Both the position numbers and the translations under genes were made by a program. From Dehalococcoidales bacterium (lineage in GTDB: Bacteria; Chloroflexota; Dehalococcoidia; Dehalococcoidales; RBG-16-60-22), in the NCBI GenBank assembly GCA_028712355.1, contig JAQTQH010000001.1:9864-73863 (forward strand): DNA of 64,000 nt, read 5' to 3'. Shown piece after piece: positions 4,574 through 60,634 of the stretch. The notes under the pieces were generated by a model. The model made no database searches. It saw only the letters and a list, made by a program, of their open reading frames with translations, and was not told the origin of the DNA. The first letter of the stretch is position 1. Every line of letters begins with the position of its first letter.

Positions 4574-4597
4574 CCGGTTTTTCTTAACAGTTTTCAG

Positions 4598-5433: not shown

Positions 5434-5495
5434 CATAGAAATCACCCGTAAATTGTAATAGGAAAAGAAAACACAGAAGGGAGGAGGTGACCAAG

Positions 5496-6086: not shown

Positions 6087-6143
6087 AAAGAGCATGCGGC
6101 TGACGCCGTGCTAGCCCGCCCGGTGCAAACCGGATTTCACATT

Positions 6144-6170
6144 GAGGGAGCTTCGCATAGAGGCTCCCTC
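6144..6170. terminator. Hairpin between convergent genes (possible bidirectional terminator)
   Basis: GAGGGAGC-11 nt-GCTCCCTC followed by TCCTATTTATT. Sits between the stops at 6086 (+) and 6173 (-). Confidence 0.4.
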
Positions 6171-6172
6171 TC

Positions 6173-6721: not shown

Positions 6722-6817
6722 ATTTTAGACTGACGGAGAAGGATTTGGCAATGTTTTATGGTAAAATGAGAATGATCAATGACTAAATGAATAATAAAAA
6801 ATAGGAAGGAGTGCCAA

Positions 6818-7051
6818 ATGAATATGGATGGAAGGGCTGCTAGTCTTAAAGCGAGGGAATATCTGGTCGAATTGAATGGTTCCTATAATATCTGGAATTT
6901 TCAAGTAGAAAACGTTGAGTATAATGAGCAAAACAAAACATGGGCTGTACAATGTTCTTTTACACCAAACATGTTCGTTACTGAAAGATTGAAATATGAA
7001 ATTATAGTATCTGATACTGGGAGTATCAAATCGGCAAAGAAAGTCAAGTAG
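6818..7051 (+). CDS. Hypothetical 77-aa protein in AT-rich islet (candidate partner of the PIN-like protein)
   Basis: AGGAAGGAG RBS 6 nt upstream. AT-rich codon usage matches the downstream ORF. No recognisable family motif. Confidence 0.5.
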   Translation: MNMDGRAASLKAREYLVELNGSYNIWNFQVENVEYNEQNKTWAVQCSFTPNMFVTERLKYEIIVSDTGSIKSAKKVK

Positions 7052-7055
7052 TTTT

Positions 7056-7574
7056 ATGAATTATTTATCAATATTATCAAATGGCTTGATAATTGATACT
7101 GGCCCCCTATTGTTACTTACGTTTTGTCGTTATAACGAAGGGCGATACCTTGAAAAAGTACGGTCTTACATTCCCAAGCCAGATATTAAGGCAGTGTCGG
7201 TGACAATCCAACAAATACTCTCCGCCGTGCCCAAAGCTGCTGTGACATCTTATGTATTAGGTGAATTTCACGCACTCGCAGGTAGGGAATTAGATTCAGA
7301 GGGAGTAATTGGTTTGATGTCCAGCAATTATGAGATGCTTAATAAAATTGAAGAAATCACTATCAGCAAGGGTGATATTTTACGTGCAAAACAGGAAAGA
7401 ACATTCCACTTTTGCTTTGCTGACACATCGCTAATGCTCGCTGCAATGCGGACTAACATGCCAGTATTGACTATAGACCGTGAATTGGGAAGATATTGTA
7501 AGGCTAATAATATCCCATCACTTGATCTGTATTATGAGTGCTTTGTTAACGACAGTTGGCTTACTTTCTCGTGA
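7056..7574 (+). CDS. PIN-domain-like (VapC-like) protein
   Basis: 172 aa, 4 nt after the previous ORF. Acidic residues in PIN order and context: LIIDTGPLL, SYVLGEFHAL, CFADTSLMLAAM, PVLTIDRELGRY. Motif-level call only. Confidence 0.55.
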   Translation: MNYLSILSNGLIIDTGPLLLLTFCRYNEGRYLEKVRSYIPKPDIKAVSVTIQQILSAVPKAAVTSYVLGEFHALAGRELDSEGVIGLMSSNYEMLNKIEEITISKGDILRAKQERTFHFCFADTSLMLAAMRTNMPVLTIDRELGRYCKANNIPSLDLYYECFVNDSWLTFS

Positions 7575-7592
7575 GCAGCATTTTCCAAATAT

Positions 7593-8618
7593 TTACAGCA
7601 GACTCGGCTGGTTGTTGTTCTTCTCTTTGTGATAGGGGATGCCGAGGTGCTGGTAGGCGAGGGGAGTGGCGAGTCTGCCGCGGGGGGTGCGCTCCAGGAA
7701 GCCCAGCTGCAACAGGTAAGGTTCGTAGACATCCATGATAGTGTCCGATTCCTCGCTGATGGAGGCGGCAATGGTCTCCAGCCCCACCGGTCCCCCGCCG
7801 AACTTATCGATTATCGTGTGCAGCAGCTTGTGGTCGACATCATCCAGCCCGATGGCATCGACCTGTAGTTTCGCCAGCGCTTCAAGGGCGGCTTTCTTCG
7901 TGATGATGCCGTCCGCCATCACCTGGGCGTAGTCCCGCACCCGGCGCAGGAGGCGGTTGGCGACGCGGGGTGTGCCGCGGGCGCGGCAGGCGATTTCTTT
8001 TAAACCTTCGGCTTCCGCTTCGACCTGTAAAATCTGGGCGGAGCGTTTTATAATTTTTTCAATCGACTGCGGGTCATAAAAATCGAGGCGGTACACCGAG
8101 CCAAAGCGGTCGCGCAGGGGCGGACTGAGCAGGGCGTAGCGGGTGGTGGCGCCGATGAGGGTAAATTTGGGCAGGTTGAGACGCAGGCTGCGGGCGCCCG
8201 GCCCCTTGCCGATGATGATATCCAGCGCATAGTCTTCCATCGCCGGATAAAGGATTTCCTCGACGACGCGGCTGAGGCGGTGGATTTCATCGATAAAGAG
8301 GATGTCCCCGGCTTTCAGATTGGTCAGGATAGCCGCTAAATCTCCGGTGCGCTCGATGGCAGGCCCCGAGGTCATGCGGATGTTTACGCCCACCTCGGCG
8401 GCGATGATATAAGCGAGGGTGGTTTTGCCGAGTCCCGGCGGACCGTAGAGCAGGACGTGGTCGAGGCTTTCGCCGCGGGCGCGCGCCGCCGCAATGGCGA
8501 TGCCAAGGTTTTCTTTAATCTGTTCCTGCCCGGTAAAATCCGCCAGGGTATGCGGCCGCAGGCTGGTATCCAGCGGGGCATCTTCCACGGCGGGCTTACC
8601 GGAAACAACGCGTGCCAT
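7593..8618 (-). CDS. ruvB: Holliday junction branch migration helicase RuvB
   Basis: 341 aa. Walker [10 protein letters not shown], Walker [10 protein letters not shown], sensor and winged-helix C-terminus. Confidence 0.96.
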
Positions 8619-8717
8619 ATTACCTCACTGGAGTTAATATAGCATTTTTGAGGGGATTTATAAACCGCTCACCGCGAGTCTTTGCTGAAAAATCGGGACT
8701 TGATAGAGTATTTAACT

Positions 8718-8786
8718 GTCACCCTGAGCGGAGCGAAGGCTCTCATTCAACGGGATTATTCGGTCGCTTCGCTCGCTCAGAATGAC
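8718..8786 (+). repeat. Family B-related structured repeat (GTCACCCTGAGCG ... CGCTCAGAATGAC), copy B3
   Basis: 69 nt in the ruvB/rpoC spacer. Outer inverted termini plus inner GAGCGAAG/CTTCGCTC pairing. Confidence 0.55.
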
Positions 8787-8795
8787 AAGGTTCTT

Positions 8796-12782
<3,987 letters not shown>

Positions 12783-20364: not shown

Positions 20365-21585
20365 ATGGCAGGCATCCTAGAAGGCGTTAAGGTCCTGGAA
20401 ATGGGACACGTGGTGGTCGTGCCCGCTGCCGCGGCGACGATGGGCGACTGGGGCGCGGATGTTCTCAAGCTGGAGCCGCTCACCGGAGACATGGCGCGCG
20501 GTTTCAAGACTATCGAAAAAATACCGCCGATTCTCCGCAGAAACGGAACGGAAATACACTGGTATTTTTCTTATTTGAACCGCAACAAGAGGAGCATCGC
20601 CCTCAACCTCAAATCGCCCGCCGGCCGCGCTGTCTTCGATAAGCTCATCCGGAATTACGATATTTTTATGTCCAATTACCAGGCCTCCTCGCTGGAAAGG
20701 CTCAATATCAACTATGAAACTCTCCGCAAGATCAACCCCCGCCTGATATACTCCATTGTTACAGGGTACGGGTCGAAAGGGCCGGACAAGGACGAGCGCG
20801 GCTTCGACCATACCGCCGCCTGGGCGCGTTCCGGCATTCAGCAGGGAATCGCCGAGCCGGGCATGCCCCCGCCGATGGAACGCGGCGGCATGATGGACCG
20901 CGTTACCGCCGCCCATGAGCTAAGTGGCATCATGGCTGCCCTGTATCACCGGGAAAAAACGGGCAAGGGACAGGCGCTGGAAGTATCGCTATACCATGCT
21001 GCGGTATGGACAGTCTCGGAAGACGTTCAGGCCGCTCTCATGGGCACGCCGCTGCCGCAAAAAGACCGCACCATCGCCGAAAACCCCCTGTTCAACTATT
21101 ACCGCACCAAGGAAGGCCGCTATTTCCAGCTCGCCATGCTGCAATCGGATGTGCAGTGGCCCGGCTTTTGCCGCGCCATAAACCGGCTGGATTTACAGAA
21201 CAACCCCCGCTTCAAGGATATGGACGCCCGCGCCGCCAACTGCCGCGAGTTCATCAAGATACTTGATGATATTTTTATCACAAAAACACGCCCCGAATGG
21301 GAGCAGCTTTTCAAAGCCCATGACTGCATCTACGGGCGGATTGAAACAGCCGCCGAAGTCGCCGGGGACCCCCAGGCAACCGCCAATGATTTCTTCGGGG
21401 AAGTGCCGCATCCGGCAATGGGCCCCATCAAGATGGTGAATACCCCGGTCCGGTTCCGGCAGAATCCTCCTTCCCTGAGGACACCCGCCCCGGAAATCGG
21501 ACAGCACACCGAGGAAGTACTGCTGGAACTCGGCTATGACTGGGAAGACATCGGCAAGCTGAAAGAGCAGGGCGTCATACTTTAA
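20365..21585 (+). CDS. Family III CoA-transferase (CaiB/BaiF type)
   Basis: 406 aa. N-terminal LEGVKVLEMGHVVVVPAAAATMGDWGADVLKLEP motif and an interlocked-dimer family length. TTGACA-17-TAACAT promoter-like site at about 20296-20324. Confidence 0.88.
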   Translation: MAGILEGVKVLEMGHVVVVPAAAATMGDWGADVLKLEPLTGDMARGFKTIEKIPPILRRNGTEIHWYFSYLNRNKRSIALNLKSPAGRAVFDKLIRNYDIFMSNYQASSLERLNINYETLRKINPRLIYSIVTGYGSKGPDKDERGFDHTAAWARSGIQQGIAEPGMPPPMERGGMMDRVTAAHELSGIMAALYHREKTGKGQALEVSLYHAAVWTVSEDVQAALMGTPLPQKDRTIAENPLFNYYRTKEGRYFQLAMLQSDVQWPGFCRAINRLDLQNNPRFKDMDARAANCREFIKILDDIFITKTRPEWEQLFKAHDCIYGRIETAAEVAGDPQATANDFFGEVPHPAMGPIKMVNTPVRFRQNPPSLRTPAPEIGQHTEEVLLELGYDWEDIGKLKEQGVIL

Positions 21586-21610
21586 ACTGGAAATGTTGGC
21601 AAAAGTCGGT

Positions 21611-21683
21611 GTCATTCCCGCGAAAGCGGGAATCCAGCAGCGAAGAAAGGGCGCTGGATTCTCAGGTCAAGACTGAGAATGAC
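21611..21683 (-). repeat. Family A cloverleaf-like structured repeat, copy A1 (best preserved, 73 nt)
   Basis: 7-bp outer stem GTCATTC/GAATGAC enclosing three hairpins: CCGC-GAAA-GCGG; GAATCCAGC-loop-GCTGGATTC; CTCAG-GTCAAGA-CTGAG. There are no unpaired junction nucleotides. Reverse orientation relative to copies A2, A3 and A5. Confidence 0.7.
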
Positions 21684-21692
21684 AATCGGGCT

Positions 21693-24600
21693 TTAAGTCT
21701 TTCGCCCGTTCTCGTTACAAAACTTGACCAACTCGGCGAACTCGTTAATTTTGACCATGTTGCTCGACTCGATGAAGCCGTCGTAGGTCAGGCTAATCCA
21801 GGGCTTCTCGTATGCCGTGCTGAACTTCTCCGCCATCGCCGCCACGATTCCGCCGGGCATGCAGCCGTGCGGCATGACGGAAATCACCCCGGCGAATTCC
21901 GGATTTTCCAGCCAATCGATGCCGCTGCCGATGCTGAGCACCGCCTCGCTGCCGCATCGCGGCGAGAGATATTGCGCTGATTTCGCCAGGATTTCCCCGG
22001 TCGCTGGCTCATGCCCATCCACCACGCCATGGAAATAGCCGGCAATTCCTCCCTCATCACGCTCCTGCACCAGCTTGCGGAGATAGCTCCTGACCGTCTG
22101 AGACAGCCTGCGGTTCTTGACGGCATCTTCCAGATTACGGTAAGAAGTATATCTAATCCACTCGCCCATCGGTGAAACGGCCGCTTCCAGACCAGCCGCT
22201 TCGCACACCCGCACCAGGTCGCGGTTGCTGAAGCGGTTGGAGCGCAGGTAGATTTCCCCATTGATGCCCACCAGCGGACGGCGCGGCAGTTCCTTATCAA
22301 CGAGAGCCATGAAGTCCGCCGGGGCTTTGCGTAAAACACCTCTCAGATTTACCTTATTACTAATAGCGCCGGCAATCTCTTTCAAATATTCGTCAAACAA
22401 TTTATCCGCCGCGCCCTTCTCCTTTTCGTAAGGACGGGTGCGCCAGAGTAGCTTCTGCAGGTAGTCCACAGTAACGATGCCTTTCCAGGCGAGCCGCTCG
22501 AAGCCGGGACCCAGGTTCAGGTCGCGGTAGGCGTTATTGGACACGGTCGTGCGGATGGGCAAATTGAAGCCCACATCCTTAAGCACCCGGATTTGCTCGA
22601 CGGCGTATTTGCCGAGGCGGCACGGCCCGTACGAGCCGCTCATCAAGCCTTCGACATTATCCAGTCCGTCGCCGTTGTGCTCGTGAAAATAGCGCAGGAA
22701 ATCTCCCAGAGTAACACGGTAAGGCAGGCATTCGGTACCGGCGGTATACTGGTTAGCATAAAGCAGGTTGCGTTCATCGGGCTCAGGCAGAACGACCGCC
22801 TTTACGCCATAAGATACCATCGCCGCGGCGACGGCTTCCGCATGGGGCGTCATGCGCGGGATGAGCACGGTCTTCCCGGCGCTGATACTCGTATTCGTAC
22901 CACGGTAAATGTCCCTCCGCGGGGCTTGGACTTCTCCCCGGGCGCGGGCATAGCTGGTGATAGTGTCAACATAGGCTTCCAGTCGTGTGACCAGTCCCGC
23001 CTCGGCGGCATGTTCGTCGATTTCCAGTTGCCCCAGCGGCTTGCTCCCCATGATATCTTCCAGCAGTTTGATAATAAACGAATTGGGACCGCAGCCGAAG
23101 TTGGTCAGCGCCAGGCTGTAGAGCCGAGAGGCATTCGCGCTGATGGCAGCCCCGGCGATGAACTTGCCTTCGTACGACCAGTAGGGACGGTCCGAGTATT
23201 TTTTCGGGTCGATTGAGGCCAGCGGCAGGAAGTCCAGCGGCACCGGCACCACGCCGAGCTGCGCCAGCTTTTCCGCGATGCCCAGGTTCGCCCCGGAGTC
23301 CTGTGACATGTAGGAGCGGGTGAGGAGGACAACACCAAGCTTATCGCTTTCGCGTAATTGCTCGAGGAGCTTTTCGCCCAGCACCGTTCGATCGGCTTCA
23401 AACCTGCGCTGGGCATCTATGCCCGCCGCAGCAGCTTGCCTGCCCGCATCTTTACTGAAGCCCAGCCGCACCGCGATATCCGCCAGGTTTTTGATGACAT
23501 CAGCATCGCCGCGACTGAAATCGATGATGGGAATAAGCAATTTGTCCCCGAGACCGAGCACCTGCCGTACAATGTATGGTGAAGCCTGGATGAGCGGACA
23601 GGCGTATTTCTGGTCTTCTTCACCATCTTTCTTGCCCAGTCGAATCGCGCAGGGGTAGAGAATATAATCGGCGTTTTTCAAAGCGGCGGCGTGCCCGTGT
23701 AGCAGCTTCATGGGGAAACAGCTATCGGTATAAGCCAGCTCGATGGCGTGCTCCATAATTTGCTTGCTGGTCTTACCGGAGAGCGCCACCCTGACTCCCA
23801 GCGCATTCAAAAACCCGATGAGCAGCGGCGCGTAGTCATATACCATCAAGGCGCGCGGGATGCCTACCAGCGGGCCGCTGCCCGTACCTGCATGATAATC
23901 GCGGAAGAGCAGCTTTTCCCGCTCATCGAAGAAGGTCTCCCGCTTCGCCTGGCTGAGCGTGCTGTCGTAGCGGTCGCAGCGGCTGCCGTAAAAAGTCGGC
24001 TTTTCCCCGGGCATTTTCATCTGGGTGATGGCGCAGTTGTTATCGCAGCCCTGGCAGGTAAAGGTGGAAAGATTATAATCCCCTTCGATGACCTTCGTAA
24101 AACCTTTGAACTTTGATTCAGCCCCATTCATCGACTCTTTCGCCAGCAGGGCGGCGCCGATGGCCCCGGAGACTTCGCGGTGTTCCGCTACGGTAAGGGT
24201 TTTACCTTTTAGCTGGTCGCTAAAGGCAGCAACCACCGCCCGGTTATAGAAGACCGCTCCGGTAAGGATAATCCGGTCGCCCAGCTTGCGCGTCCCCACT
24301 ACCTTGGAAAGGTAGTTCTTGGCGATGGAGTTCGCCAGGCTGGCGGTGATGATGGGCAAGGGCACACCCTCCTGCTGGGCGGAGGACACCGCCTGTCCCA
24401 TGAACGCGGCGCAGCGCGTACCCAAATCGATGGTGTGCGGCGCGGTGAACGCAAGCTCGGCGAACTCGCCGCTTTTCACGGAAACGCCGAGCATCTCGGC
24501 AAGCTCATCAATAAAGCTGCCGGTACCGGCGGCGCAGGCTTTATTCATCTGGTAGTCCACAACAACGCCGTTGCGCTTGATGACCAGCTTGGAGTCCTGC

Positions 24601-25826
24601 CCGCCGATTTCAATAATATCCGCTTCCGGGTCGATGTCATAAGCCGCCCGGGTCTGGGCGGTAATCTCGTTCTTAATCAGGTCGGCGCCAATCATGCTGC
24701 CGATGAGATAGCGCCCCGAGCCGGTCACGCCCACGCCGGCGATGGCAACGTTGTCCGCGCCCGCCTGCCGCAGATTGCGGAAGACCTCCTTCACCGCATC
24801 CACAGGGCGTCCCGCCGTCATGAGATAATGCTTGGCGAGAATGGTTTTTCCGGACTCGTCCATGATGACTGCCTTGGTGCTCGTCGAGCCGACATCGACG
24901 CCGAGGTAGCCCCGGAGCGACGCATTGATGGCCAGTTTTGCCCCGTTACTTGGCAGGGAAACTTCCGGCAGCCGGGGCATTTCGAAATAGCGCTGGCGGG
25001 CATCGCCTTCCGGCAACAAATTAACTGCCGAAATCTTATCGCGGGAAAGCAGCGCCGCCCCCAGCGCTTCCATATAGAGATAATTTTGCGGAACAATGAC
25101 TTCGACAGGTTGCCCGTTCCTTGCCGCAAGCACTTCGCTGAGCGCTTTGATAATGGCAGCGTTGGCGGCAACCCCGCCGACGAAATAGACCGGCGGAGGG
25201 AAAGTGCCTTTCTGGAGAGAGGCAACCATGCGGGCGATACTCTCGCACAAGGCGTAGAGCATGGCTGACACCGGAACGCCCTTCTGCTGGAGGTGAATCA
25301 GGTCGCTCTTGGCAAAAACGCTGCAACGGGCGGCGATGCGGGGCGGGGCTCCCTGGCATTTCAACGCCAGACCGGCAAAGTCCTCGATTCCGATGCCGAG
25401 CCGGTAAGCCTGCTGCTCTAAAAATCTGCCCGTGCCGGCGGCGCAGAGGGGATTGGCGGCGACCTTCCACGGCTTCTTCAGTCCGTCTTCCAGCACCACC
25501 GCCAGTGAGCTTTGCCCGCCAATCTGGATAATCGTTTTGGCATCCGCATGATGGTGCAGCAAGCCTGATATTATCGCCAGAGAACTGCTGTACTCCGCCC
25601 AGTGGAACGCCGGCGGAACGGCGCCTTTACCGGAGCCGGAAACGCCGGCGGCGGCAATCTCATCAAGGCGAAATTTTTCACTCAGGCGCTTCAAAAGCGT
25701 ATTTATGGCAATTTTCGGATTACCGGCGATGCGCTGGACACCCAGATGAAGGATTTCACCACCTTCATCAATGAGCGCCAGTTTGACATTCACCGAACCG
25801 ACATCGATTCCGAGATAGCGTTTCAT
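21693..25826 (-). CDS. Fusion protein: two BadF/BadG/BcrA/BcrD-type (HgdC-like) activase ATPase domains plus a dehydratase-related C-terminal region (DUF2229-like)
   Basis: Two ASKHA phosphate-1 motifs (MKRYLGIDVGSVNVK; GYLGVDVGSTSTKAV), a Cys cluster CQGCDNNC...C, and a long C-terminal region. The ORF track starts at 25898, but MKRYLGIDVGS at 25826 fits the family N-terminus. Confidence 0.8.
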   Translation of the reverse strand: MKRYLGIDVGSVNVKLALIDEGGEILHLGVQRIAGNPKIAINTLLKRLSEKFRLDEIAAAGVSGSGKGAVPPAFHWAEYSSSLAIISGLLHHHADAKTIIQIGGQSSLAVVLEDGLKKPWKVAANPLCAAGTGRFLEQQAYRLGIGIEDFAGLALKCQGAPPRIAARCSVFAKSDLIHLQQKGVPVSAMLYALCESIARMVASLQKGTFPPPVYFVGGVAANAAIIKALSEVLAARNGQPVEVIVPQNYLYMEALGAALLSRDKISAVNLLPEGDARQRYFEMPRLPEVSLPSNGAKLAINASLRGYLGVDVGSTSTKAVIMDESGKTILAKHYLMTAGRPVDAVKEVFRNLRQAGADNVAIAGVGVTGSGRYLIGSMIGADLIKNEITAQTRAAYDIDPEADIIEIGGQDSKLVIKRNGVVVDYQMNKACAAGTGSFIDELAEMLGVSVKSGEFAELAFTAPHTIDLGTRCAAFMGQAVSSAQQEGVPLPIITASLANSIAKNYLSKVVGTRKLGDRIILTGAVFYNRAVVAAFSDQLKGKTLTVAEHREVSGAIGAALLAKESMNGAESKFKGFTKVIEGDYNLSTFTCQGCDNNCAITQMKMPGEKPTFYGSRCDRYDSTLSQAKRETFFDEREKLLFRDYHAGTGSGPLVGIPRALMVYDYAPLLIGFLNALGVRVALSGKTSKQIMEHAIELAYTDSCFPMKLLHGHAAALKNADYILYPCAIRLGKKDGEEDQKYACPLIQASPYIVRQVLGLGDKLLIPIIDFSRGDADVIKNLADIAVRLGFSKDAGRQAAAAGIDAQRRFEADRTVLGEKLLEQLRESDKLGVVLLTRSYMSQDSGANLGIAEKLAQLGVVPVPLDFLPLASIDPKKYSDRPYWSYEGKFIAGAAISANASRLYSLALTNFGCGPNSFIIKLLEDIMGSKPLGQLEIDEHAAEAGLVTRLEAYVDTITSYARARGEVQAPRRDIYRGTNTSISAGKTVLIPRMTPHAEAVAAAMVSYGVKAVVLPEPDERNLLYANQYTAGTECLPYRVTLGDFLRYFHEHNGDGLDNVEGLMSGSYGPCRLGKYAVEQIRVLKDVGFNLPIRTTVSNNAYRDLNLGPGFERLAWKGIVTVDYLQKLLWRTRPYEKEKGAADKLFDEYLKEIAGAISNKVNLRGVLRKAPADFMALVDKELPRRPLVGINGEIYLRSNRFSNRDLVRVCEAAGLEAAVSPMGEWIRYTSYRNLEDAVKNRRLSQTVRSYLRKLVQERDEGGIAGYFHGVVDGHEPATGEILAKSAQYLSPRCGSEAVLSIGSGIDWLENPEFAGVISVMPHGCMPGGIVAAMAEKFSTAYEKPWISLTYDGFIESSNMVKINEFAELVKFCNENGRKT

Positions 25827-25893
25827 ATCCAAATCAATTTTAGCAGAGATATGGATTTTACAAAAGTCTGAGGTAATCAGAGTGCTTAAATAT

Positions 25894-25964
25894 GGCATTC
25901 TCGGGCTTGACCCGGGAATCCAGAATGCGTTCGCCCACTGGATTCCCGTTTTCGCAGGAATGAC
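25894..25964 (+). repeat. Family A cloverleaf-like structured repeat, copy A2 (71 nt)
   Basis: GGCATTC-TCGGGCTTGACCCGG-GAATCCAG..CTGGATTC-CCGTTTTCGCAG-GAATGAC. Aligns end to end with the reverse complement of A1. The first hairpin keeps pairing through an A:T to G:C double change. Confidence 0.65.
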
Positions 25965-51102: not shown

Positions 51103-51131
51103 TTGACAAGGGTGACCTAACAGAGTAAAAT
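51103..51131 (+). promoter_or_regulatory. Candidate promoter of the TRAP operon
   Basis: TTGACA-17 nt-TAAAAT. Implies a ~185-nt leader before the TTG start at 51324. Confidence 0.45.
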
Positions 51132-51323: not shown

Positions 51324-52511
51324 TTGAAAGGAAAACTGATTAAATCTATTGGTATTATTATTGCCTTAGTACTGGTCGCATCGCTTTCATTGATTGCCTG
51401 CCAGCCGGCGGCGCCCGCCACCACCACCGCCCCGGCCGCAACCACTCCGGCGGCGACTACTCCGGGCGCGGTAACCGCTACAGCGACCACCCCGGCCGCC
51501 ACGAAGCCTGCCACTACCACCCCCGCCCCGAAGCCGGCGGCCACGGTAATCAAGTGGAAATTCCAGACCCATGAGGGCCCAGATCTGGTTAACTCCACCA
51601 AGCTCCAGAAGTGGCTTGTCCCCACCCTCGAGGCCATGACCGATGGCCGCTTCACGATGGATATCTTCTATACCGGCGCAATCCTGCCCAACGAAGAACT
51701 GGTTGACGGCGCCAACAAGGGCGTTATTGACGGCTTCGATATCAGCCAGGGTTATTTCTCCGGCGCTAAGAACATGGGCTGGACGATTGCCGCCGGCATT
51801 GAGCCTTTCATCGAGAAGACCGGCATCGAAATCTTCGAGTTCCTCTGGGACTGGGAAGGCGGCAAGATGGAGAAGTGGCATCAGAAGCAGTGGGACCCGT
51901 TCGGCATTCACTTCTTCACTTCCGTACCGGCTAACGGTGTTGGCCTTATCTGCTCCAAAGATATCACCAACCTGGCGGATGTCTCCAAGATTATCGTCCG
52001 CACGCACAGCGGCGCGGCAGTCTTCTGGGAGCAGCTTGGCGCCCGTACCACTTACATCCCCGGACCGGAAATCTACACCGGCCTCCAGCTCGGCACCGCT
52101 AATGCCGCCACCTGGAAATCGGCTCAATCCTTCAAGGACTGGCACTGGGAAGAGGTCGCCAAGTACCTCGTTATGCCGGCCCCGCTACCGTGGGCGGCCC
52201 ACCAGTCTTATAGCAGCATTAATGCCTGGAACAAGCTGCCCAAGGACATCCAGAATTGCATGACCATCGCTTTCCGCGAGTTCGCCCAGCAGCACCACCG
52301 CAACTACGTGGACCTCGACGAGAAAGCCGCCCAGGAAATGGCTGCCAAGTCCGGCGTTAAAGTAATCCGATGGACCAGCGCGGCGGACATGGCCAAGCTG
52401 GAGGCAGCTAAAATGTACGTCATGGACTGGATTTCCAAGAAGGATGCCAGCGGCGCGGAATACATCAACCTGTGCAAGGACTATCTCAGATACAAGGGTT
52501 ACATACAGTAA
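51324..52511 (+). CDS. dctP: TRAP transporter substrate-binding lipoprotein (DctP-type) with Pro/Thr/Ala linker
   Basis: TTG start 5 nt after GAGGAGG; the ORF track gives 51207. Lipobox LSLIAC and a ~50-aa PAT-rich tether, followed by a solute-receptor domain, then dctQ and dctM. Confidence 0.8.
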   Translation: MKGKLIKSIGIIIALVLVASLSLIACQPAAPATTTAPAATTPAATTPGAVTATATTPAATKPATTTPAPKPAATVIKWKFQTHEGPDLVNSTKLQKWLVPTLEAMTDGRFTMDIFYTGAILPNEELVDGANKGVIDGFDISQGYFSGAKNMGWTIAAGIEPFIEKTGIEIFEFLWDWEGGKMEKWHQKQWDPFGIHFFTSVPANGVGLICSKDITNLADVSKIIVRTHSGAAVFWEQLGARTTYIPGPEIYTGLQLGTANAATWKSAQSFKDWHWEEVAKYLVMPAPLPWAAHQSYSSINAWNKLPKDIQNCMTIAFREFAQQHHRNYVDLDEKAAQEMAAKSGVKVIRWTSAADMAKLEAAKMYVMDWISKKDASGAEYINLCKDYLRYKGYIQ

Positions 52512-52571
52512 CTTAAGTTCAAAGTGGGGTGGCTTCGAAGCCACCCCACTTTACCCCCTGAAGGAGCCAGT

Positions 52572-53084
52572 ATGAATCTTCTTCGTGCCATTTTGCATGG
52601 TATCGACACGATGAGCGAGTGGATCGGGCGGTTGATGTGCTGGTTCGTCGTCGTTATGTTTATAATCATTTGCTTTGAAATTTTCATGCGATATATTTTT
52701 CGTATGCCCACCCTGTGGGTGCATGAAACTACCGGTTTCATCCTCGTTATTGCCGTAATGATGAGCGGAGGCTTTACCCTCTACCACCGAACTCACGTAA
52801 ATGTGGAAATCCTGTACAACCGGCTTTCGCCGAGAAACCGCGCTATTTTAGATCTGTTCACTTGGCTGATGTTCTACGCTTTTATCATTATCCTTATCTG
52901 GCAGGGCGGCGAATTGTCACGCCTGTCTATTGCCCGTAACGAGCACTCTAATACCTACTGGCGTCCTATCATGTGGCCTTTCAAGCTCATGGTTCCGATA
53001 GGTGCGGTACTTATTTTACTTCAGGGTCTGGCGAAAACGGCGCGTGACCTGGTAACGGCAATAACCGGAAAGGAGCTGGCATGA
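52572..53084 (+). CDS. dctQ: TRAP transporter small permease (DctQ)
   Basis: 170 aa, 4 TM. AAGGAG RBS before ATG 52572. 4-nt overlap with dctM. Confidence 0.82.
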   Translation: MNLLRAILHGIDTMSEWIGRLMCWFVVVMFIIICFEIFMRYIFRMPTLWVHETTGFILVIAVMMSGGFTLYHRTHVNVEILYNRLSPRNRAILDLFTWLMFYAFIIILIWQGGELSRLSIARNEHSNTYWRPIMWPFKLMVPIGAVLILLQGLAKTARDLVTAITGKELA

Positions 53085-54406
53085 GCATCGAACTAAGTAC
53101 GGCGCTCCTTTTCATCGCCCTGCTGGTTTTACTGGCACTCGGTCTGCCCATTGCCTTCACCATTGGCGGCATTGCCGTGGTCTTCACCTACTTCCTGCTC
53201 GGGCAGAGCGGCCTATTTTTATTTGGCGGCAGTGTTTTCCGCCAGTTGACCAGCTTTATCTTCGCCGCTTTACCCCTCTTTATTTTCATGGGTCATATGC
53301 TGGAGCGCTCCGGAATCGCCGATGACCTCTACCAGATGTTTTTCGTCTGGATGGGCCCCCTGCGCGGCGGTCTCGCTATGGGTACTGTCCTCATCTGCAC
53401 TATCTTCGCCGCGATGGCCGGTGTGAGCGCTGCGGCTACCGTGACCATGGGCATCGTCGCTCTACCGTCAATGCTCAAGCGCGGCTATGACAAGAAACTG
53501 GCGCTGGGCTGTATCGGCGCCGGCGGCGCGCTGGGGGTACTCATCCCGCCCAGCAACATCATGATTCTCTACGGCGCTTTCTCCGGGGAGTCTATCGGCA
53601 GGCTCTATGCCGGCGGCATCTTTCCCGGCTTAATCCTTTCCGGGATGTTCTGCCTCTACATCGCGATACGCTCGTTTATCCAGAAAGACCTGGCGCCTGC
53701 GCTGCCCAAAGAGGAGCGGGCGAGCTGGAGAGTAAGATTCGCTTCCCTCAGAGCCGTCATCCTGCCCATTCTACTCATTATTGCAGTTTTGGGTTCTATC
53801 TTCGCCGGCATGGCGACGCCTACTGAGGCGGCGGCGGTCGGCGCGCTCGGCAGCGTGGTCTGCAGCGCGATTTACCGGCGTCTCACGTTTAAAGCCCTCT
53901 ATCAAGCAGCTTACCGGACGCTGGGCACCACCTGCATGATTCTCTGGATTGTCATCGCAGTGACTGCTTTTACTTCGTTCTACACCTCGGCAGGCGCCCA
54001 GGACCTGATAAAGGGCATACTGCTGGGCTTACCCATCAGCCCCTTCATGCTCATCATCGCCATCCAAATTATCTGGTTCATTCTGGGCTGTTTCCTCGAC
54101 CCCACCGGCATCATCATGATTACCGTGCCCATCTTCGTCCCGGTCATCAAAGCGCTCGGTTTCGATCCAGTGTGGTTCGGCGTGCTCTTCGTGGTCAACA
54201 TGGAGATGGCATACCTCACCCCGCCCTACGGCGTCAACCTGTTCTATCTTAAAGGCGTCGCCCCCGAGGGTGTGACCATGTCCGACATTTATCGTTCCAT
54301 CGCACCATTTGTCGCCCTGCAGGCTGTGGCGCTGGCGCTGGTATTGATGTTCCCGCAGATAATCCTGTACCTGCCCAATCTGCTGCTGGGTGTCGTCAAG
54401 GGCTAA
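53081..54406 (+). CDS. dctM: TRAP transporter large permease (DctM)
   Basis: 441 aa polytopic protein, paralog of the truncated gene at 1-1209. Confidence 0.9.
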   Translation: MSIELSTALLFIALLVLLALGLPIAFTIGGIAVVFTYFLLGQSGLFLFGGSVFRQLTSFIFAALPLFIFMGHMLERSGIADDLYQMFFVWMGPLRGGLAMGTVLICTIFAAMAGVSAAATVTMGIVALPSMLKRGYDKKLALGCIGAGGALGVLIPPSNIMILYGAFSGESIGRLYAGGIFPGLILSGMFCLYIAIRSFIQKDLAPALPKEERASWRVRFASLRAVILPILLIIAVLGSIFAGMATPTEAAAVGALGSVVCSAIYRRLTFKALYQAAYRTLGTTCMILWIVIAVTAFTSFYTSAGAQDLIKGILLGLPISPFMLIIAIQIIWFILGCFLDPTGIIMITVPIFVPVIKALGFDPVWFGVLFVVNMEMAYLTPPYGVNLFYLKGVAPEGVTMSDIYRSIAPFVALQAVALALVLMFPQIILYLPNLLLGVVKG

Positions 54407-54431
54407 TTCCGAAGATAAACCACTTAATAGT

Positions 54432-54464
54432 CGGCTGGCTCGGTACCGAGCCAGCCGGTTTTTT
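54432..54464 (+). terminator. Intrinsic terminator after the TRAP operon
   Basis: 12-bp GC-rich stem CGGCTGGCTCGG/CCGAGCCAGCCG followed by GTTTTTT. Confidence 0.8.
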
Positions 54465-54567
54465 ATACGTAAAAGATGACAGCAGAGCCTGCAATCGGTT
54501 AAAATATTGTCCGGTGCTTCACATTGTCTAATCATTAAAACCACTCATAAATCAGGAGGATTTCAGC

Positions 54568-56142
54568 ATGAAAATGGCAGGGCACATGGGAATGGAGGAA
54601 GGCATTGAGGAACTGGAGAGGCGCCGGGCGAAGGCGCTGGAACTGGGCGGCGCCGAACAGGTAGCGGCGCAGCACGCCCGCGGCAGATTGACGGCCCGTG
54701 AGAGACTCGCCAAACTTATTGACCCCGGGACTAATTTCCGCGAATTCGGCATGCTGAATGTCTCCGAACGCCCGGAAATGGCCGACCGTACACCTGCCGA
54801 TGCCAGAATCACCGGCATCGGTATCATCAACGGGAGGAAGACTTCCATATGCGCGGATGACCGCACCGCCCTAGGCGGCAGTGACGGTTGGGTAGGTTCA
54901 TTTATGAAACGCCCGCGCCTGCATACCATGTTCACCCAGAAAGGCTACCCGGAAATCTACCTGGGAGACAACCTCGGTGGGCTGCGCCTGCCGGACGGCA
55001 TGGGCTCCGCCGGCATGAGCCGCGCCCCGCTACCCCCGCCCCTCTTGAAAGACCCCCGGGAAACGCCACGCATCGCCGCCATCATGGGCGAGTGCTTCGG
55101 CGAGCCGAGCTGGATGGCTTCCCTGGCGGACTTCGTGGTCATGCTCAAGAACGGCTGCATGGGCGCCGCCGGGCCCCGTATCCTCAAGATAGCCATCGGC
55201 GAAGAAATCACCCCCTGGGAACTGGGCGGATGGGAGCTGCGCTACAACCAGACCGGCGAAGTAGATAGGGTCGCCGAGAACGATGAGGAATGCCTAAACA
55301 TTGTCCGGGAATACTTGACCTACATGCCGGCGCATAACGGCGAGGAACCACCCATCGTCCCCACCAAAGACCCCACTGACCGCCGCATCGACGATATTGG
55401 CAAGATAGTCCCCGATGAACTGAACAAGGGCTACGATATGCACCGTGTCATCAAGCGCGTGGTCGATGACGGCAAATTCTTCGAGCTGAAAGCCGGCTTC
55501 GGCAAATCGCTGATTACCTGCCTGGCACGGCTCAACGGACGGGTGGTCGGTTTCATCGCCAACAATCCGTTCTTCGATGCCGGCGCGCCCTCGGTGCAGT
55601 CCTGCGAGAAAGCCGCCAGCTTTATCTGCCTGTGTGATTCGTTCAATATCCCGCTGATTCACCTGGCGGACGTCCCCGGCATGTTCCCCGGCAGCATTTC
55701 AGAAAAGCAGAAGCTGCCTGCCAAAATCATCAACTGGCTGGAAGCACAGAACCTGGCGACGGTACCCAAGCTCTCCATCATCATGCGCAAGTCTTACGGC
55801 ATCGGCTACAACGTCATGATGCAGCCCTGCGAGACTGCTGACTTCGTGGTTGCCTGGCCCACCGCTTCCGTCAGCTTCGTCGACCCGACCGTCGGCGTAG
55901 AACTGGTGGAAGGCCGCCGCATCGAAGCCTCACCGAATCCGAAAGAGATACGTGAGCGTCTCAAGCAGGAATGGGCGACCGAGACCACGCCATGGAAGGC
56001 TGCCGAAGGCGGTTACTTCGATGACGTTATCGACCCGCGGGATACCCGCCGCTGGCTTACCGATACTCTGGACATCATCGTCGGCTACCGTCGCAACCTG
56101 ATTGGCGAACACAAGCTCCGCGTCTGGCCGACCAAGTTCTAG
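54568..56142 (+). CDS. Acyl-CoA carboxyltransferase-family protein (PccB/GcdA/MmdA-like), divergent N-domain
   Basis: 524 aa. C-domain block VGFIANNPFFDAGAPSVQSCEKAASFICLCDSFNIPLIHLADVPGMFPG. The N-domain has DNLGGLRLPDG where I recall DSGGARIQEG in canonical enzymes. CAGGAGG RBS. Confidence 0.8.
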   Translation: MKMAGHMGMEEGIEELERRRAKALELGGAEQVAAQHARGRLTARERLAKLIDPGTNFREFGMLNVSERPEMADRTPADARITGIGIINGRKTSICADDRTALGGSDGWVGSFMKRPRLHTMFTQKGYPEIYLGDNLGGLRLPDGMGSAGMSRAPLPPPLLKDPRETPRIAAIMGECFGEPSWMASLADFVVMLKNGCMGAAGPRILKIAIGEEITPWELGGWELRYNQTGEVDRVAENDEECLNIVREYLTYMPAHNGEEPPIVPTKDPTDRRIDDIGKIVPDELNKGYDMHRVIKRVVDDGKFFELKAGFGKSLITCLARLNGRVVGFIANNPFFDAGAPSVQSCEKAASFICLCDSFNIPLIHLADVPGMFPGSISEKQKLPAKIINWLEAQNLATVPKLSIIMRKSYGIGYNVMMQPCETADFVVAWPTASVSFVDPTVGVELVEGRRIEASPNPKEIRERLKQEWATETTPWKAAEGGYFDDVIDPRDTRRWLTDTLDIIVGYRRNLIGEHKLRVWPTKF

Positions 56143-56163
56143 CCGCATCAGAGAGATGGCACC

Positions 56164-57366
56164 TTGAAAGCAGCTCTGGGCGACCTGAAGATAATCGAGT
56201 ACGCCAGCCTGATTAATGGTCCTTATTGCAGTAAAATGCTGGCGGACATGGGCGCCGATGTTATCAAAATTGAAAAAAACGGCGGCGACGATGCTCGCCG
56301 CCGTGGACCCTTTCTCGCCGATATCCCCGGCGCCGAACGCAGCGGGCTTTTCCTTTATGTAAACACCAACAAGCGCGGCATCACACTGGATATCACCACC
56401 GCCACAGGTAAAGAAATCCTCCGCAAACTACTGACAGACGCCGATATCTTCATTGAAGACACCCGGCCCGGCACTTTATCCTCTCTCGGATTAGGCTACG
56501 CCGCTCTCAAAGAACTGAATCCGCGCCTTATCATGACCTCGGTGACACCATTCGGGCAGACCGGCCCCTGCCGGCGCTGGAAAAGCTCCGACCTCATCGG
56601 CTGGGAGATAGGCGGCATGGGCTTCATTACACCTCGGCATGCTGGCAGCTCTGACCAAGAGCCGCTACGTTTACTCCAGACAATTAGTTTTATCACCGGG
56701 GTCACCGCCGCCATGGGCACGATGTTCGCCGTGGAAGCCAGGCGCTATACCGGTCTCGGTCAACAGGTCGATTGCTCGCAAATAGAGTCCGCCATTTACC
56801 TGAGCGGCGACGGTATCGCATACCCGCCTTACGAACACCGCAGTATGAGCCGGACTTTCAAGACGATGTTCGGACCCGAGCACCTGGTGCGCTGCCAGGA
56901 TGGCTTTGTCATGGTACACGGGATGGAGCCGCACCACTGGCGCGGCCTGGCGGAATTGACCGGAAATACCAATCTGGTTGATGATGAGCGTTTCAAAGAC
57001 ACTTTCTTACGCGGGCAAAACTGGGACATCTTACAGCCGCTTATCGAAGCCTTCACCATGCAACACACCAAAGACGAGCTTTTCCAGATGGCGAAAGACA
57101 AAGCTATCCCGATGGGACCCGCCCGCACCATGGACGAGATTCTGAAGGCGGAGCAGTTTAAATTCCGGCAGTTCTTCATCAATATCGAGCACTCCGAAAC
57201 AGGGAGATTGACTTACCCCGGCGCACCGTGCAAGTACTCCACCATGCGATGGAAAATCCGGAGACCGGCGCCCCGGCTGGGTGAGCACAATGAAGAAGTC
57301 TACTGCGGGCAACTCGGCTTCTCCCGCACCGAACTGGTCAGGCTGTACGAGGCAGGAATTATTTGA
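56164..57366 (+). CDS. Family III CoA-transferase, subunit 1 of an adjacent pair
   Basis: 400 aa. LGDLKIIEYASLINGPYCSKMLADMGADVIKIE motif. TTG start. Confidence 0.85.
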   Translation: MKAALGDLKIIEYASLINGPYCSKMLADMGADVIKIEKNGGDDARRRGPFLADIPGAERSGLFLYVNTNKRGITLDITTATGKEILRKLLTDADIFIEDTRPGTLSSLGLGYAALKELNPRLIMTSVTPFGQTGPCRRWKSSDLIGWEIGGMGFITPRHAGSSDQEPLRLLQTISFITGVTAAMGTMFAVEARRYTGLGQQVDCSQIESAIYLSGDGIAYPPYEHRSMSRTFKTMFGPEHLVRCQDGFVMVHGMEPHHWRGLAELTGNTNLVDDERFKDTFLRGQNWDILQPLIEAFTMQHTKDELFQMAKDKAIPMGPARTMDEILKAEQFKFRQFFINIEHSETGRLTYPGAPCKYSTMRWKIRRPAPRLGEHNEEVYCGQLGFSRTELVRLYEAGII

Positions 57367-58550
57367 AAAAAGCTAAAGCATTGCCACTAGAAGGCATCCG
57401 CATCGTGGAAATTGCTACCGCATGGGTCGGTCCCGGTAGTGTCGGCATATTGTCATCGATGGGCGCTGAGGTCATCAAGATTGAAAACCCGGCGCACCCC
57501 GATTTCTGGCGCCGATGTCAGCCCTTCGCCGAGCGAGTCCCGGGTATTAACCGCAGCGGCGCTTTCGCCCTGCTCAACCGGGGCAAGAAGGACTGCGAGC
57601 TCGACCTTAAGTCGCCGGAGGGTGCGGCTCAAGCAAAGGAAATTGTTAAAATCAGTGACATGGTCATCACCAATTTCGCCCCACGCGTCATGGGCAATTT
57701 CGGGCTGGGCTACGCCGACCTTTGCAGAGTAAAACCGGATATTATCATGGTCTCCGCTTCCGGTTACGGCATTGATGGGCCCGACCGTGACCGCGTCGCT
57801 TTCGGTCCGGTACTTGAGGCATATAGCGGTATTAGCTGTTTAATCGGACACCCCGGGAGTCCACAGCTCTGCGGTACTTCCATCACCGACCACATCGGAG
57901 CTATCAACGTTGTCTTTGCCGCGCTGGCGGCGCTGCATCACCGTCGTCTCACCGGAGAGGGGCAGTTCATCGATCTTGCTGAAACAGAGAGCGCTCTCAC
58001 CTGCATGGGCGATGCCGTCATGGAATATACGATGACCGGGCGGATACCCGAACCCTGCGGCAACCATGACGAGGCGATGTTTCCCCATAACTGCTATCGC
58101 TGCCGCGGCGACGACAAATGGCTGGCAATCGCCATCGCCAACGACGATGAGTGGCGGTCGCTCTGCCGGGTAATGGGAAAACCCGAACTGGCAACTGATG
58201 AGCGCTTTGCCGATGGCTTCCGGCGCTGGCAGAACCAGAAGGCACTGGACAAGCTCATCACGGCATGGGCGAGCCAGCAGGACGATATCAAGATTGTTCA
58301 TCAGCTCCAGAAAGCGGGGGTGACCGCTTCACCAATCTACAGTGCTGCAGACCAGTATCAGGACGCGCACCTTAAGGCGCGGCGCTACTTTGTGGAACAT
58401 GAGCATCCGGAAGTCGGCAAGCGGGTACTACCCGGTGTGATTGTGCGGCTCAGTGAAACTCCCGGCAAGATTGAAGGATATGACCCGCTTCTCGGTGAGC
58501 ATAACGAATGGGTGCAAAATGTCCTGCTGGGCAACAAGGGCATTGGTTGA
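57363..58550 (+). CDS. Family III CoA-transferase, subunit 2 of an adjacent pair
   Basis: 395 aa. LEGIRIVEIATAWVGPGSVGILSSMGAEVIKIE motif. The TTG start overlaps the upstream TGA (ATTTGA), suggesting translational coupling. Confidence 0.85.
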   Translation: MKKAKALPLEGIRIVEIATAWVGPGSVGILSSMGAEVIKIENPAHPDFWRRCQPFAERVPGINRSGAFALLNRGKKDCELDLKSPEGAAQAKEIVKISDMVITNFAPRVMGNFGLGYADLCRVKPDIIMVSASGYGIDGPDRDRVAFGPVLEAYSGISCLIGHPGSPQLCGTSITDHIGAINVVFAALAALHHRRLTGEGQFIDLAETESALTCMGDAVMEYTMTGRIPEPCGNHDEAMFPHNCYRCRGDDKWLAIAIANDDEWRSLCRVMGKPELATDERFADGFRRWQNQKALDKLITAWASQQDDIKIVHQLQKAGVTASPIYSAADQYQDAHLKARRYFVEHEHPEVGKRVLPGVIVRLSETPGKIEGYDPLLGEHNEWVQNVLLGNKGIG

Positions 58551-58738: not shown

Positions 58739-60634
58739 CTATTCGCCGCGCTTGACGACTTTGAGACTGTCTTTTATCTCGTCCAGGATGGCGGGGTCAT
58801 CAATAGTAGACGGTACGGTATAAGGCTGATTATCGGTGATCTTGCGGATGGTCGAGCGCAGTATCTTTCCTGACCGCGTCTTGGGCAGTCTCTTGACGAT
58901 AATCGCCTGCTTGAAGGAGGCAACCGCCCCGATGTTGTCCCTGACCAGCTGCGCCAGCTCTTTAATGATGACTTCGTTCTCACGCTTGACACCAGCTTTC
59001 AGCACGACGAAACCCAGCGGCAACTGTCCCTTGAAGCTGTCCGCCATACCCACCACAGCACACTCCGCTACATCCGGGTGCTTGGCAATCGCCTCTTCCA
59101 TGGAGCCGGTCGAGAGGCGGTGCCCGGCGACCTTGATAACATCATCCGCACGGCCCATCACGAAGAGATAGCCGTCATGATCGATTTTGCCGACATCGCC
59201 GGTGAAGTAGAATCCAGGATAAGGGTCGAGGTAAGAACTGACGTATCTGTCATCATTCTGCCAGAGAGTGGGCAGGTTGCCCGGAGGTAGCGGCATTTTG
59301 ATGAGCACCAGACCGTCAGTATCCGGCGGTGCCTGAGTGCCATCAGCATCTACTATCTGCACATTATAGCCGGGAGCTGGCTTGGTGGGCGAGCCCGGTT
59401 TGATGGGCAGGGCTTCCAGCCCCATGCAGTTGGCGGCAATCGGCCAGCCGGTCTCAGTCTGCCACCAGTGGTCGACGACGGGAATCTTGAGCATATTGCT
59501 TGCCCAGTAATAGGTATCCGTATCCAGCCGCTCGCCAGCGAGGAAAAGGTATTTCAAAGAGGAAATATCGTACTTCTTGAGGTAGGCGCCCTCCGGGTCT
59601 TCCTTCTTGATGGCGCGGAAGGCGGTGGGGGCGGTAAAGAAGCAGCGCACCTTGTGCTGGGAGATGACCCGCCAGAAAGCACCGGGGTCGGGCGTGCCGA
59701 CCGGCTTACCTTCGTAGATAATGGAAGTGCAGCCGTAAAAAAGCGGGGCGTAGATAATGTAAGAGTGTCCCACCACCCAGCCTACATCCGAGGCCGCCCA
59801 GAAGACATCCCCCGGCGCTACGCCGTAGATATTCTTCATCGTCCATTTCAGAGCCACGGCATGACCGCCATTATCCCGCACCACACCCTTGGGGATGCCG
59901 GTCGTGCCGGAAGTATACAGAATATAGAGCGGGTCGGTGGCTTTCATCACTTCACAATCGGCGGGCTTCGCTGCTTTCATCAGCTCTGCCCAATCAAAAT
60001 CACGCCCCGGGATTAAGTTGGCGTTCGCCTGCGGACGCTGAAGAATGATGCATTTCTCCGGCTTGTGCTTGGCTTCGTCAATCGCCCGGTCGAGTAACGG
60101 TTTATACTCGATGACCCGCTTCGTTTCGATACCGCAGGACGCCGAGAGGATGACTTTCGGCGCGGCATCGTCAATACGGATGGCAAGTTCGTGCGGGGCA
60201 AACCCCCCGAAGACCACAGAGTGAATCGCGCCGATGCGGGCACAGGCGAGCATGGCGACCGCCGCTTCCGGCACCATCGGCATATAGATAATCACCCGGT
60301 CGCCCTTGTTGACGCCGTTTGCCTTAAGTACGCCGGCAAAACGAGAGACCAGATCCAGAAGCTGGGCGTAGGTGATTTTGCGCACCGTATCCGTTACCGG
60401 GCTGTCATAGATATAGGCAACCTGATTGCCTCTGCCGTTTTTGACGTGATAATCCACAGCATTATAGCAGGTATTGAGCTCGCCGCCGGTAAACCAGCGG
60501 TAGAAAGGTTTTTCGGAATCATCGAAGACCTTGCCGTACTTCTTGTACCATGCTACTTGATGGGCGGCTTCGCCCCAGAACTTCTCGGGATTATTAATCG
60601 ATTCGTCGTAAGCTCGTTGATATTCTCCAGCCAT
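58739..60634 (-). CDS. Acetyl/propionyl-CoA synthetase family enzyme (Acs/PrpE-like)
   Basis: 631 aa. YTSGTTGIPKGV, FTGDVGKIDHDGYLFVMGRADDVIKVAGHRLSTGSMEEA, PKTRSGKILR. N-terminal region typical of the ~630-aa PrpE/Acs clade. Confidence 0.88.
   Translation of the reverse strand: MAGEYQRAYDESINNPEKFWGEAAHQVAWYKKYGKVFDDSEKPFYRWFTGGELNTCYNAVDYHVKNGRGNQVAYIYDSPVTDTVRKITYAQLLDLVSRFAGVLKANGVNKGDRVIIYMPMVPEAAVAMLACARIGAIHSVVFGGFAPHELAIRIDDAAPKVILSASCGIETKRVIEYKPLLDRAIDEAKHKPEKCIILQRPQANANLIPGRDFDWAELMKAAKPADCEVMKATDPLYILYTSGTTGIPKGVVRDNGGHAVALKWTMKNIYGVAPGDVFWAASDVGWVVGHSYIIYAPLFYGCTSIIYEGKPVGTPDPGAFWRVISQHKVRCFFTAPTAFRAIKKEDPEGAYLKKYDISSLKYLFLAGERLDTDTYYWASNMLKIPVVDHWWQTETGWPIAANCMGLEALPIKPGSPTKPAPGYNVQIVDADGTQAPPDTDGLVLIKMPLPPGNLPTLWQNDDRYVSSYLDPYPGFYFTGDVGKIDHDGYLFVMGRADDVIKVAGHRLSTGSMEEAIAKHPDVAECAVVGMADSFKGQLPLGFVVLKAGVKRENEVIIKELAQLVRDNIGAVASFKQAIIVKRLPKTRSGKILRSTIRKITDNQPYTVPSTIDDPAILDEIKDSLKVVKRGE

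Follow-up and report, generated by a model that had tools for sequence, protein, structure and literature searches.

A TRAP transporter operon, a divergent carboxyltransferase and a BbsEF-type CoA-transferase pair in a Dehalococcoidales genome: a possible module for decarboxylation of an imported organic acid

A stretch of 64,000 nucleotides from a Dehalococcoidales bacterium (GCA_028712355.1; hereafter the window) was analyzed, in which a tripartite ATP-independent periplasmic (TRAP) transporter operon, dctPQM (51324-54406), is followed on the same strand by a carboxyltransferase (CT) gene and two family III CoA-transferase (CoAT) genes (54568-58550). With a probability of about one half, we read this locus as a catabolic module for an imported organic acid, which would be taken up, loaded with CoA by a transferase and decarboxylated in a biotin-dependent reaction. 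Each part is of a known kind (TRAP-T transporter, BbsEF-type transferase, PF01039 carboxyltransferase). What is new is their combination, the uncharacterized clade to which the CT belongs, and a ratio of twelve alpha-type CT genes to one biotin carrier and one pump in the genome.

Genes were called from the list of open reading frames (ORFs) and from Pfam and NCBIfam scans of the window proteins. The source assembly (G000) has 1.53 Mb in 80 contigs and is 96 % complete; the contig labels used below (C8, C15 and so on) refer to it. Reads carrying the stretch were found in DNA runs from one landfill study only. A scan of genome contigs returned a sister metagenome-assembled genome (MAG) of the Dehalococcoidales as the sole relative; its 94 %-identical contig (L018) has the identical order efp-epmA, dctPQM, CT, CoAT1 and CoAT2.

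Judged by their sequences, the two CoA-transferases form a BbsEF-type pair of a catalytic subunit, CoAT1 (56164-57366), and an Asp-less partner subunit, CoAT2 (57363-58550). The CoA_transf_3 domain is full-length in both (323 and 357 bits across the entire PF02515 profile), and their best solved matches are different chains of the benzylsuccinate CoA-transferase structure 9fn0, chain A for CoAT1 (182 bits) and chain B for CoAT2 (235 bits, the next structure having 172). The catalytic position was located by alignment with 4ed9, SUGCT and chains A and B of 9fn0. CoAT1 has the motif SSD, whose Asp is aligned with the catalytic Asp of 4ed9, SUGCT and 9fn0_A, and CoAT2 has FG, with Gly in the position of the catalytic Asp, the same as in 9fn0_B; the pair is therefore assigned as one catalytic and one non-catalytic BbsEF-type subunit. 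A heteromeric, BbsEF-like pair had been proposed in an earlier sequence-only reading of this DNA, and both the matches to different 9fn0 chains and the Asp/Gly pattern bear this out.

The heterodimer model of CoAT1 and CoAT2 received a score of 0.96 (best control 0.00), with a pLDDT of 92 for the partner and at least 95 % of the contacts shared among three runs. This mark was attained by 58 of 80 solved complexes and by 2 of 110 mismatched pairs. As all family III CoA-transferases are interlocked dimers, the score expresses likeness and not a preference over self-pairing; it may stem from resemblance to solved dimers of this family and gives no distinction between hetero- and homodimers.

Tandem PF02515 paralogues with Asp in one subunit and Gly in the other are also the arrangement of BbsEF (succinyl-CoA:(R)-benzylsuccinate CoA-transferase), to which the two-subunit phthalate CoA-transferases of anaerobes are related. 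The match to BbsEF is only moderate at the bit scores given above, however, and the window locus has neither the bbs beta-oxidation genes nor a glycyl-radical synthase. Database relatives of CoAT2 are nearly all Dehalococcoidales MAG proteins, for which the JGI pipeline label is 'BbsF subunit', and its close clade was found in 2 of the 151 Dehalococcoidales genomes searched, this genome included. Putative two-subunit benzylsuccinate CoA-transferases have already been reported from marine Dehalococcoidia single-cell genomes (PMC4959651). Our literature searches for Dehalococcoidia with a carboxyltransferase and a CoA-transferase, and for BbsE/BbsF with aspartate, found nothing.

The CT (54568-56142, 524 aa) is the proposed alpha component of a biotin-dependent decarboxylase. 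From its sequence it is a member of a distinct, uncharacterized clade, which we call group I, and it is neither an ordinary PccB nor a GcdA. The two-domain PF01039 fold is complete (330 bits over residues 35-504), with full-length alignment to 1vrg, 1x0u and 1on3, and the nearest solved relatives are PccB, MmdA and 12S-type chains (E-values 1e-99 to 1e-88). GcdA (3gf3, 1pix), which the sequence-only reading had cited as a CT-fold acyl-CoA decarboxylase, was matched over residues 220-497 only, with E-values of 1e-24 to 1e-25, so that the likeness to it is weak in comparison. The score for the MmdA family TIGR01117 was 368 bits (cut-off 998.8), and that for the biotin-independent malonate decarboxylase family MdcD/E (NF005530) was 27 bits (cut-off 228).

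The active site of the CT fold lies at the dimer interface of the CT. Three motifs conserved in canonical enzymes are replaced here. In the N-domain oxyanion hole, the canonical GPxAGGAVYSPA reads GECFGEPSWMAS, with GECFGEPSW in place of GPAAGGAVY; in the C-domain, RKAYGGAY reads RKSYGIGY; and the N-domain loop DSGGARIQEG reads DNLGGLRLPDG. The oxyanion-hole motif of group I CTs contains an invariant Cys-Phe-Gly-x-Pro-Ser-Trp. The low TIGR01117 score and the replacement of the DSGGARIQEG, AGG and YGGA motifs agree with the sequence-only reading, in which the DNLGGLRLPDG region had been singled out and the CT regarded as divergent and not an ordinary PccB. The motif changes are conserved in a set of 119 homologues, whose sources are Dehalococcoidales, Syntrophales, Desulfomonile and other Thermodesulfobacteriota MAGs. 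No characterized member was found among the 119, whose names are generic or come from automatic pipelines. Group I CTs occur in 6 of the 151 Dehalococcoidales genomes searched, including this one, and are thus rare in the order, as is the close clade of CoAT2.

The main reason for reading the window CT as biotin-dependent, with its partners encoded elsewhere, is that relatives of the clade adjoin biotin carriers and OadB. Their contexts were obtained by scanning metagenome contigs with the group I CT alignment and reading the neighbours with custom scripts (L-numbered loci). A 73-aa carrier with AMKM is encoded 22 nt before a group I CT that has 55 % identity and the same motifs (L043), and carriers lie within 2.5 kb of the group I CTs of L102, L058, L095 and L099. 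In L047, a CoA-transferase pair is followed by two group I-like CTs. Members of a sister clade (39-42 % identity) recur in an operon of a CoA-transferase, a CT, a carrier of 70-105 aa and a second CT of another type (L088, L107, L108, L111, L116 and L119), and no biotin carboxylase or pump gene was found in these four-gene operons. In another sister-clade locus (L066) the CT stands with OadB, and a carrier is encoded about 1 kb downstream on the same strand. The (A/S)MKM motif is present in all 28 carrier-like ORFs of the metagenome loci. The window CT thus most likely acts as a plug-in alpha subunit, its complex being a biotin-dependent decarboxylase that possibly pumps Na+. The four-gene operons resemble the window in that they have related CTs, a family III CoA-transferase adjoining the CT, and neither a biotin carboxylase nor a pump in the operon. 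They differ in having a carrier of their own, a second CT and a single CoA-transferase; in the window the transferase has two subunits, and there is only one CT and no carrier gene.

When all six frames of the window were searched for [AESVC]MKM, the sole match was the N-terminus of the CT itself (MKMAG). The claim of the sequence-only reading that the CT has no biotin partners thus holds for the window; it does not hold for the genome, which encodes one mini carrier and one OadG/OadB pair. The only Biotin_lipoyl match is a carrier of 70-100 aa with SMKM on C15, between clpC and radA. The only OAD_beta (OadB) gene has a small OAD_gamma (OadG) gene just upstream and lies on C43 between a P-type ATPase gene and a gene of the major facilitator superfamily. 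Among the 151 genomes of the order, 105 have OAD_beta. Neither Biotin_carb_C nor PYC_OADA (the 5S/OadA domain) was found in a search of the whole genome at 96 % completeness. As neither a biotin carboxylase nor a partner of the 5S type was found, the CT is likelier to remove or transfer a carboxyl group than to carry out ATP-driven carboxylation, and an ATP-driven carboxylase is unlikely. For the same reason the labels that pipelines give to group I CTs, 'acetyl-CoA carboxylase' or 'propionyl-CoA carboxylase beta', are probably mistaken in this genome.

The TRAP-T set of three (family 7 binding protein, small and large permease) is complete, with PF03480, PF04290 and PF06808 all above their cut-offs. 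The solute-binding lipoprotein gene dctP (51324-52511; PF03480 78 bits) has a TTG start preceded by GAGGAGG, and its product has a signal peptide, the lipobox LIAC and then a Pro/Thr/Ala tether of about 55 residues. The small permease gene dctQ (52524-53084; PF04290 102 bits) and the large permease gene dctM (53081-54406; PF06808 305 bits; TIGR00786 357 bits, above cut-off) follow. A promoter-like site, TTGACA-17-TAAAAT, precedes the operon at 51103-51131 (a consensus match only), and an intrinsic terminator ends it at 54429-54460, with a 14-bp stem of which nine pairs are GC and then TTTTAT. An operon with its own terminator was what the sequence-only reading had described, and the gene calls and the stem with its T-run confirm it. 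As for the substrate, the solved structure nearest to DctP is the lactate-binding TTHA0766 (66 bits), and its closest solved proteins bind lactate or 2-oxoacids, with weak similarity (45-66 bits). No ligand can therefore be assigned to DctP, and the dicarboxylate that had been suggested is not established.

The CT and the CoA-transferases make up a separate unit, as had been noted before, and both the gene calls and the overlap of the CoAT1 stop with the CoAT2 start (ATTTGA at 57361-57366) were confirmed; CoAT2 is predicted to be translationally coupled to CoAT1. The CT stop and the CoAT1 start are 21 nt apart and no terminator lies in the gap. Another promoter-like site, ATGACA-18-TAAAAT, lies before the CT at 54476-54505 (again a consensus match only). 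We tie the TRAP operon to the CT unit on the basis of adjacency and of paralogous modules in the genome, not of a common transcript.

Genes of these kinds are numerous. The 13 PF01039 matches in the genome represent 12 CT genes of at least four types, since one CT gene is split between the joining ends of C45 and C46. Four of the CTs belong to group I, and the canonical motifs are found in the CT on C75 only. The genome has at least seven TRAP systems and 19 PF02515 genes, with nine tandem pairs in which a CoAT1-like gene is invariably followed by a CoAT2-like gene. The catalytic Asp is present in seven of the nine first subunits, with His in that of C8 (3016-4230) and Glu in that of C45 (22012-23364). 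It is absent from all nine second subunits, which have Gly in eight cases and Ala in C8. The pairs on C8 and C53 are directly fused to dctPQM. Of the four group I CTs, three have a CoA-transferase pair within 6 kb; for a random gene the chance of this is about 8.5 % (a rough estimate that ignores contig breaks).

In the pathway that we propose, the acid would be taken up by the TRAP system, and a heteromer of CoAT1 (catalytic) and CoAT2 (Asp-less) would convert it to the CoA thioester, with CoA from a donor acyl-CoA. The group I CT would then move the free carboxyl group of the CoA ester onto the biotin of the single small carrier (C15), which it would have to share with other CTs. Carboxybiotin would be decarboxylated, most likely by the single OadG/OadB module (C43), with presumed export of Na+ by this likewise shared pump. 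The acyl-CoA product could serve as the CoA donor of the next round, closing a putative CoA cycle. An Acs/PrpE-type acyl-CoA synthetase gene on the reverse strand (58739-60634; NF007815 776 bits, below the cut-off of 955; PRK00174 687 bits, above the cut-off of 657), which has its own promoter and terminator, may be a source of the priming acyl-CoA. We infer decarboxylation as the direction of the CT. CT-fold chemistry needs a carboxyl group alpha, or vinylogous, to the thioester, which points to a CoA ester of the malonyl or glutaconyl type. The sequence-only reading had already placed import, activation and decarboxylation in one pathway. Its BbsEF-like pair and divergent CT stand, and decarboxylation or carboxyl transfer is likelier than ATP-driven carboxylation; its dicarboxylate is not supported, the likeness to GcdA is weak, and its lack of biotin partners does not hold at the level of the genome.

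Several observations weigh against this reading. Both oxyanion-hole motifs of the CT are unlike those of biotin-dependent enzymes of known structure. The window locus has no biotin carrier, OadB or second CT; the carrier and pump genes are both off the contig of the window, and a Na+-translocating complex is not encoded together with the CT. It may be that the one carrier and the one pump work for the canonical MmdA-like CT on C75 alone, and methylmalonyl-CoA mutase is encoded in the genome. Between the TRAP operon and the CT unit lie the terminator at 54429-54460 and the promoter-like site at 54476-54505. The CT orthologues of two further genomes of the Dehalococcoidales (G113 and G140; 58-59 % identity) come after his genes, with no CoA-transferase nearby. 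Finally, a search of the 96 %-complete assembly for a biotin-protein ligase found none. This is probably an assembly gap, as 79 of 83 good genomes of the order have the ligase, and for that reason we set its absence aside as a sign of biotin independence.

Some of these points would suit a soluble decarboxylase, in which the CT acts alone on the CoA ester with free biotin or none and no energy is conserved, while the carrier and OadGB serve the canonical CT only. The absence of a partner gene from the locus fits such an enzyme, as do the altered oxyanion-hole motifs with their invariant Cys-Phe-Gly-x-Pro-Ser-Trp. The CT-fold subunits of malonate decarboxylase work without biotin, though the window CT matches those families weakly (E about 1e-6). 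GcdA alone decarboxylates glutaconyl-CoA with free biotin, according to Braune et al. (1999) as cited in PMC2996986. We nevertheless consider a soluble enzyme rather unlikely: members with the same signature adjoin mini biotin carriers (L043, L102), sister-clade members adjoin OadB, and the score for the MdcD family is far under its cut-off. Unlikely, too, is an ATP-free transcarboxylase, in which the carboxyl group would pass by the shared carrier to one of the 11 paralogous CTs and carboxylate a second acyl-CoA, giving for example malonyl-CoA. The failure to find a biotin carboxylase beside 12 CT genes of at least four types would be explained in this way, and CT-BCCP-CT operons (BCCP, biotin carboxyl carrier protein) recur in relatives, while at the C45/C46 junction CTs of group I adjoin CTs of group II. 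But the window locus has no second CT, no acceptor can be named, and the OadG/OadB of the genome offers carboxybiotin a direct sink.

It could also be that the genes are neighbours without a common pathway, with the TRAP operon, and possibly the CT, acting on compounds other than that of the CoA-transferase pair, and with the clustering due to gene density. The genome is indeed crowded with TRAP, CoA-transferase and CT genes, terminator and promoter are separate for the two units, and the CT orthologues of G113 and G140 stand alone. This is harder to reconcile with the 21 nt and missing terminator between CT and CoAT1, with the proximity of three of the four group I CTs to a CoA-transferase pair at the roughly estimated rate given above, and with the TRAP-CoAT operon fusions on C8 and C53, and we regard mere adjacency as quite improbable. 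We therefore retain the module of uptake, CoA transfer and biotin-dependent decarboxylation as the preferred reading.

Among known systems, the Na+-translocating biotin-dependent decarboxylases of methylmalonyl-CoA (MmdABCD) and glutaconyl-CoA (GcdABCD) share with this genome a PF01039 alpha-type CT, the beta subunit OAD_beta, a biotin carrier and a small anchor of the OAD_gamma type, and a biotin carboxylase was not found here. They differ in that the components are here on three contigs and not in one operon, that the window CT scores under the MmdA cut-off, has altered oxyanion-hole motifs and matches GcdA only in part (E 1e-25), and that twelve candidate alpha genes face one carrier and one pump. 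TRAP-linked phthalate clusters have a CoA transfer followed by a decarboxylation step. The window locus would follow the same order, with a CT-fold enzyme in place of UbiD. In the formyl-CoA transferase (Frc) and oxalyl-CoA decarboxylase system, in the conversion of succinate to propionate by Propionigenium modestum and in the use of malonate by Malonomonas rubra, a CoA-transferase of family III or another family loads the dicarboxylate, the decarboxylase regenerates the donor acyl-CoA and ion translocation conserves energy. The window module would have the same logic, its own cycle being a proposal, but its decarboxylase is not of the Oxc type, it has no acyl carrier protein system as in Mad/Mdc, and no mutase or epimerase is encoded in the locus.

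If the preferred reading is correct, the locus offers a testable route in which uptake is followed by CoA transfer, carried out by a heteromer with a single catalytic subunit, and then by biotin-dependent decarboxylation. It also brings into view an uncharacterized CT clade common to Dehalococcoidales, Syntrophales and Desulfomonile. Sediments, aquifers and landfills harbour abundant non-dehalogenating Dehalococcoidia, of which to our knowledge none has been cultured on a defined acid. A wider and more doubtful proposal is a hub-and-spoke arrangement, in which one carrier and one OadG/OadB Na+ pump would serve up to twelve CT alpha modules, several with their own TRAP and BbsEF-type modules, and much of the energy of this landfill bacterium would come from decarboxylating many different organic acids. 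Many alpha-type genes for one carrier and one pump would bear on energy conservation in streamlined anaerobes.

The other CoA-transferase pairs of the genome have varied neighbours. The pair on C12 adjoins two acyl-CoA dehydrogenases, that on C29 an aldehyde:ferredoxin oxidoreductase and that on C25 an ADP-forming synthetase-like gene; the neighbour at the C45/C46 junction is a divergently transcribed group I CT, and on C53 there are a glycyl-radical enzyme and its activase in addition to dctPQM. On a single strand, the C53 locus (1718-10788; L039) has dctP-dctQ-dctM, then CoAT1-like and CoAT2-like genes, the glycyl-radical enzyme (803 aa) and the activase, with gaps of 2-14 nt from dctM through CoAT2, 194 nt between CoAT2 and the enzyme, and 42 nt between the enzyme and the activase. 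A glycyl-radical enzyme adjoining a BbsEF-type transferase is unusual. We considered this enzyme as a fumarate-adding synthase, but the idea was not supported, as its nearest solved relatives are of the dehydratase type (glycerol dehydratase 461 bits, compared with 376 for MasD and 364 for BssA).

A dense cluster was found at C45:3561-23925 joined to the end of C46 (L017, L122 and L016). It contains two tandem divergent CTs with an enoyl-CoA hydratase, a second glycyl-radical enzyme with activase, an NMO-like gene, several short-chain dehydrogenase/reductase (SDR) genes, a group II CT and a molybdopterin oxidoreductase. Its CoA-transferase pair and a group I CT are divergently oriented, the CT gene running across the contig join (overlap of 242 nt, 98.8 %); another group II CT, an SDR gene and a TRAP system with two dctP genes come next. 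The end of C18 and the start of C19 overlap by 106 nt with 99 % identity. This places a CoA-transferase pair about 5.5 kb upstream of a group I CT, and the interval contains an SBF transporter gene and glucan-metabolism genes. On C47 (8323-11583), and in locus L032 of another genome (G136), a group I CT is near a gene of the HpaB/AbfD family (4-hydroxybutyryl-CoA dehydratase type). The contexts on C19 and C47 gave no clear functional lead.

An Rfam search of the leaders returned no known RNA family; there were below-threshold chance matches and a T-box at the end of the window only. Elsewhere in the window (20365-25898), a single family III CoA-transferase adjoins a 1401-aa protein of the CoA-enzyme activase type, with BcrAD/BadFG ATPase and DUF2229 domains.

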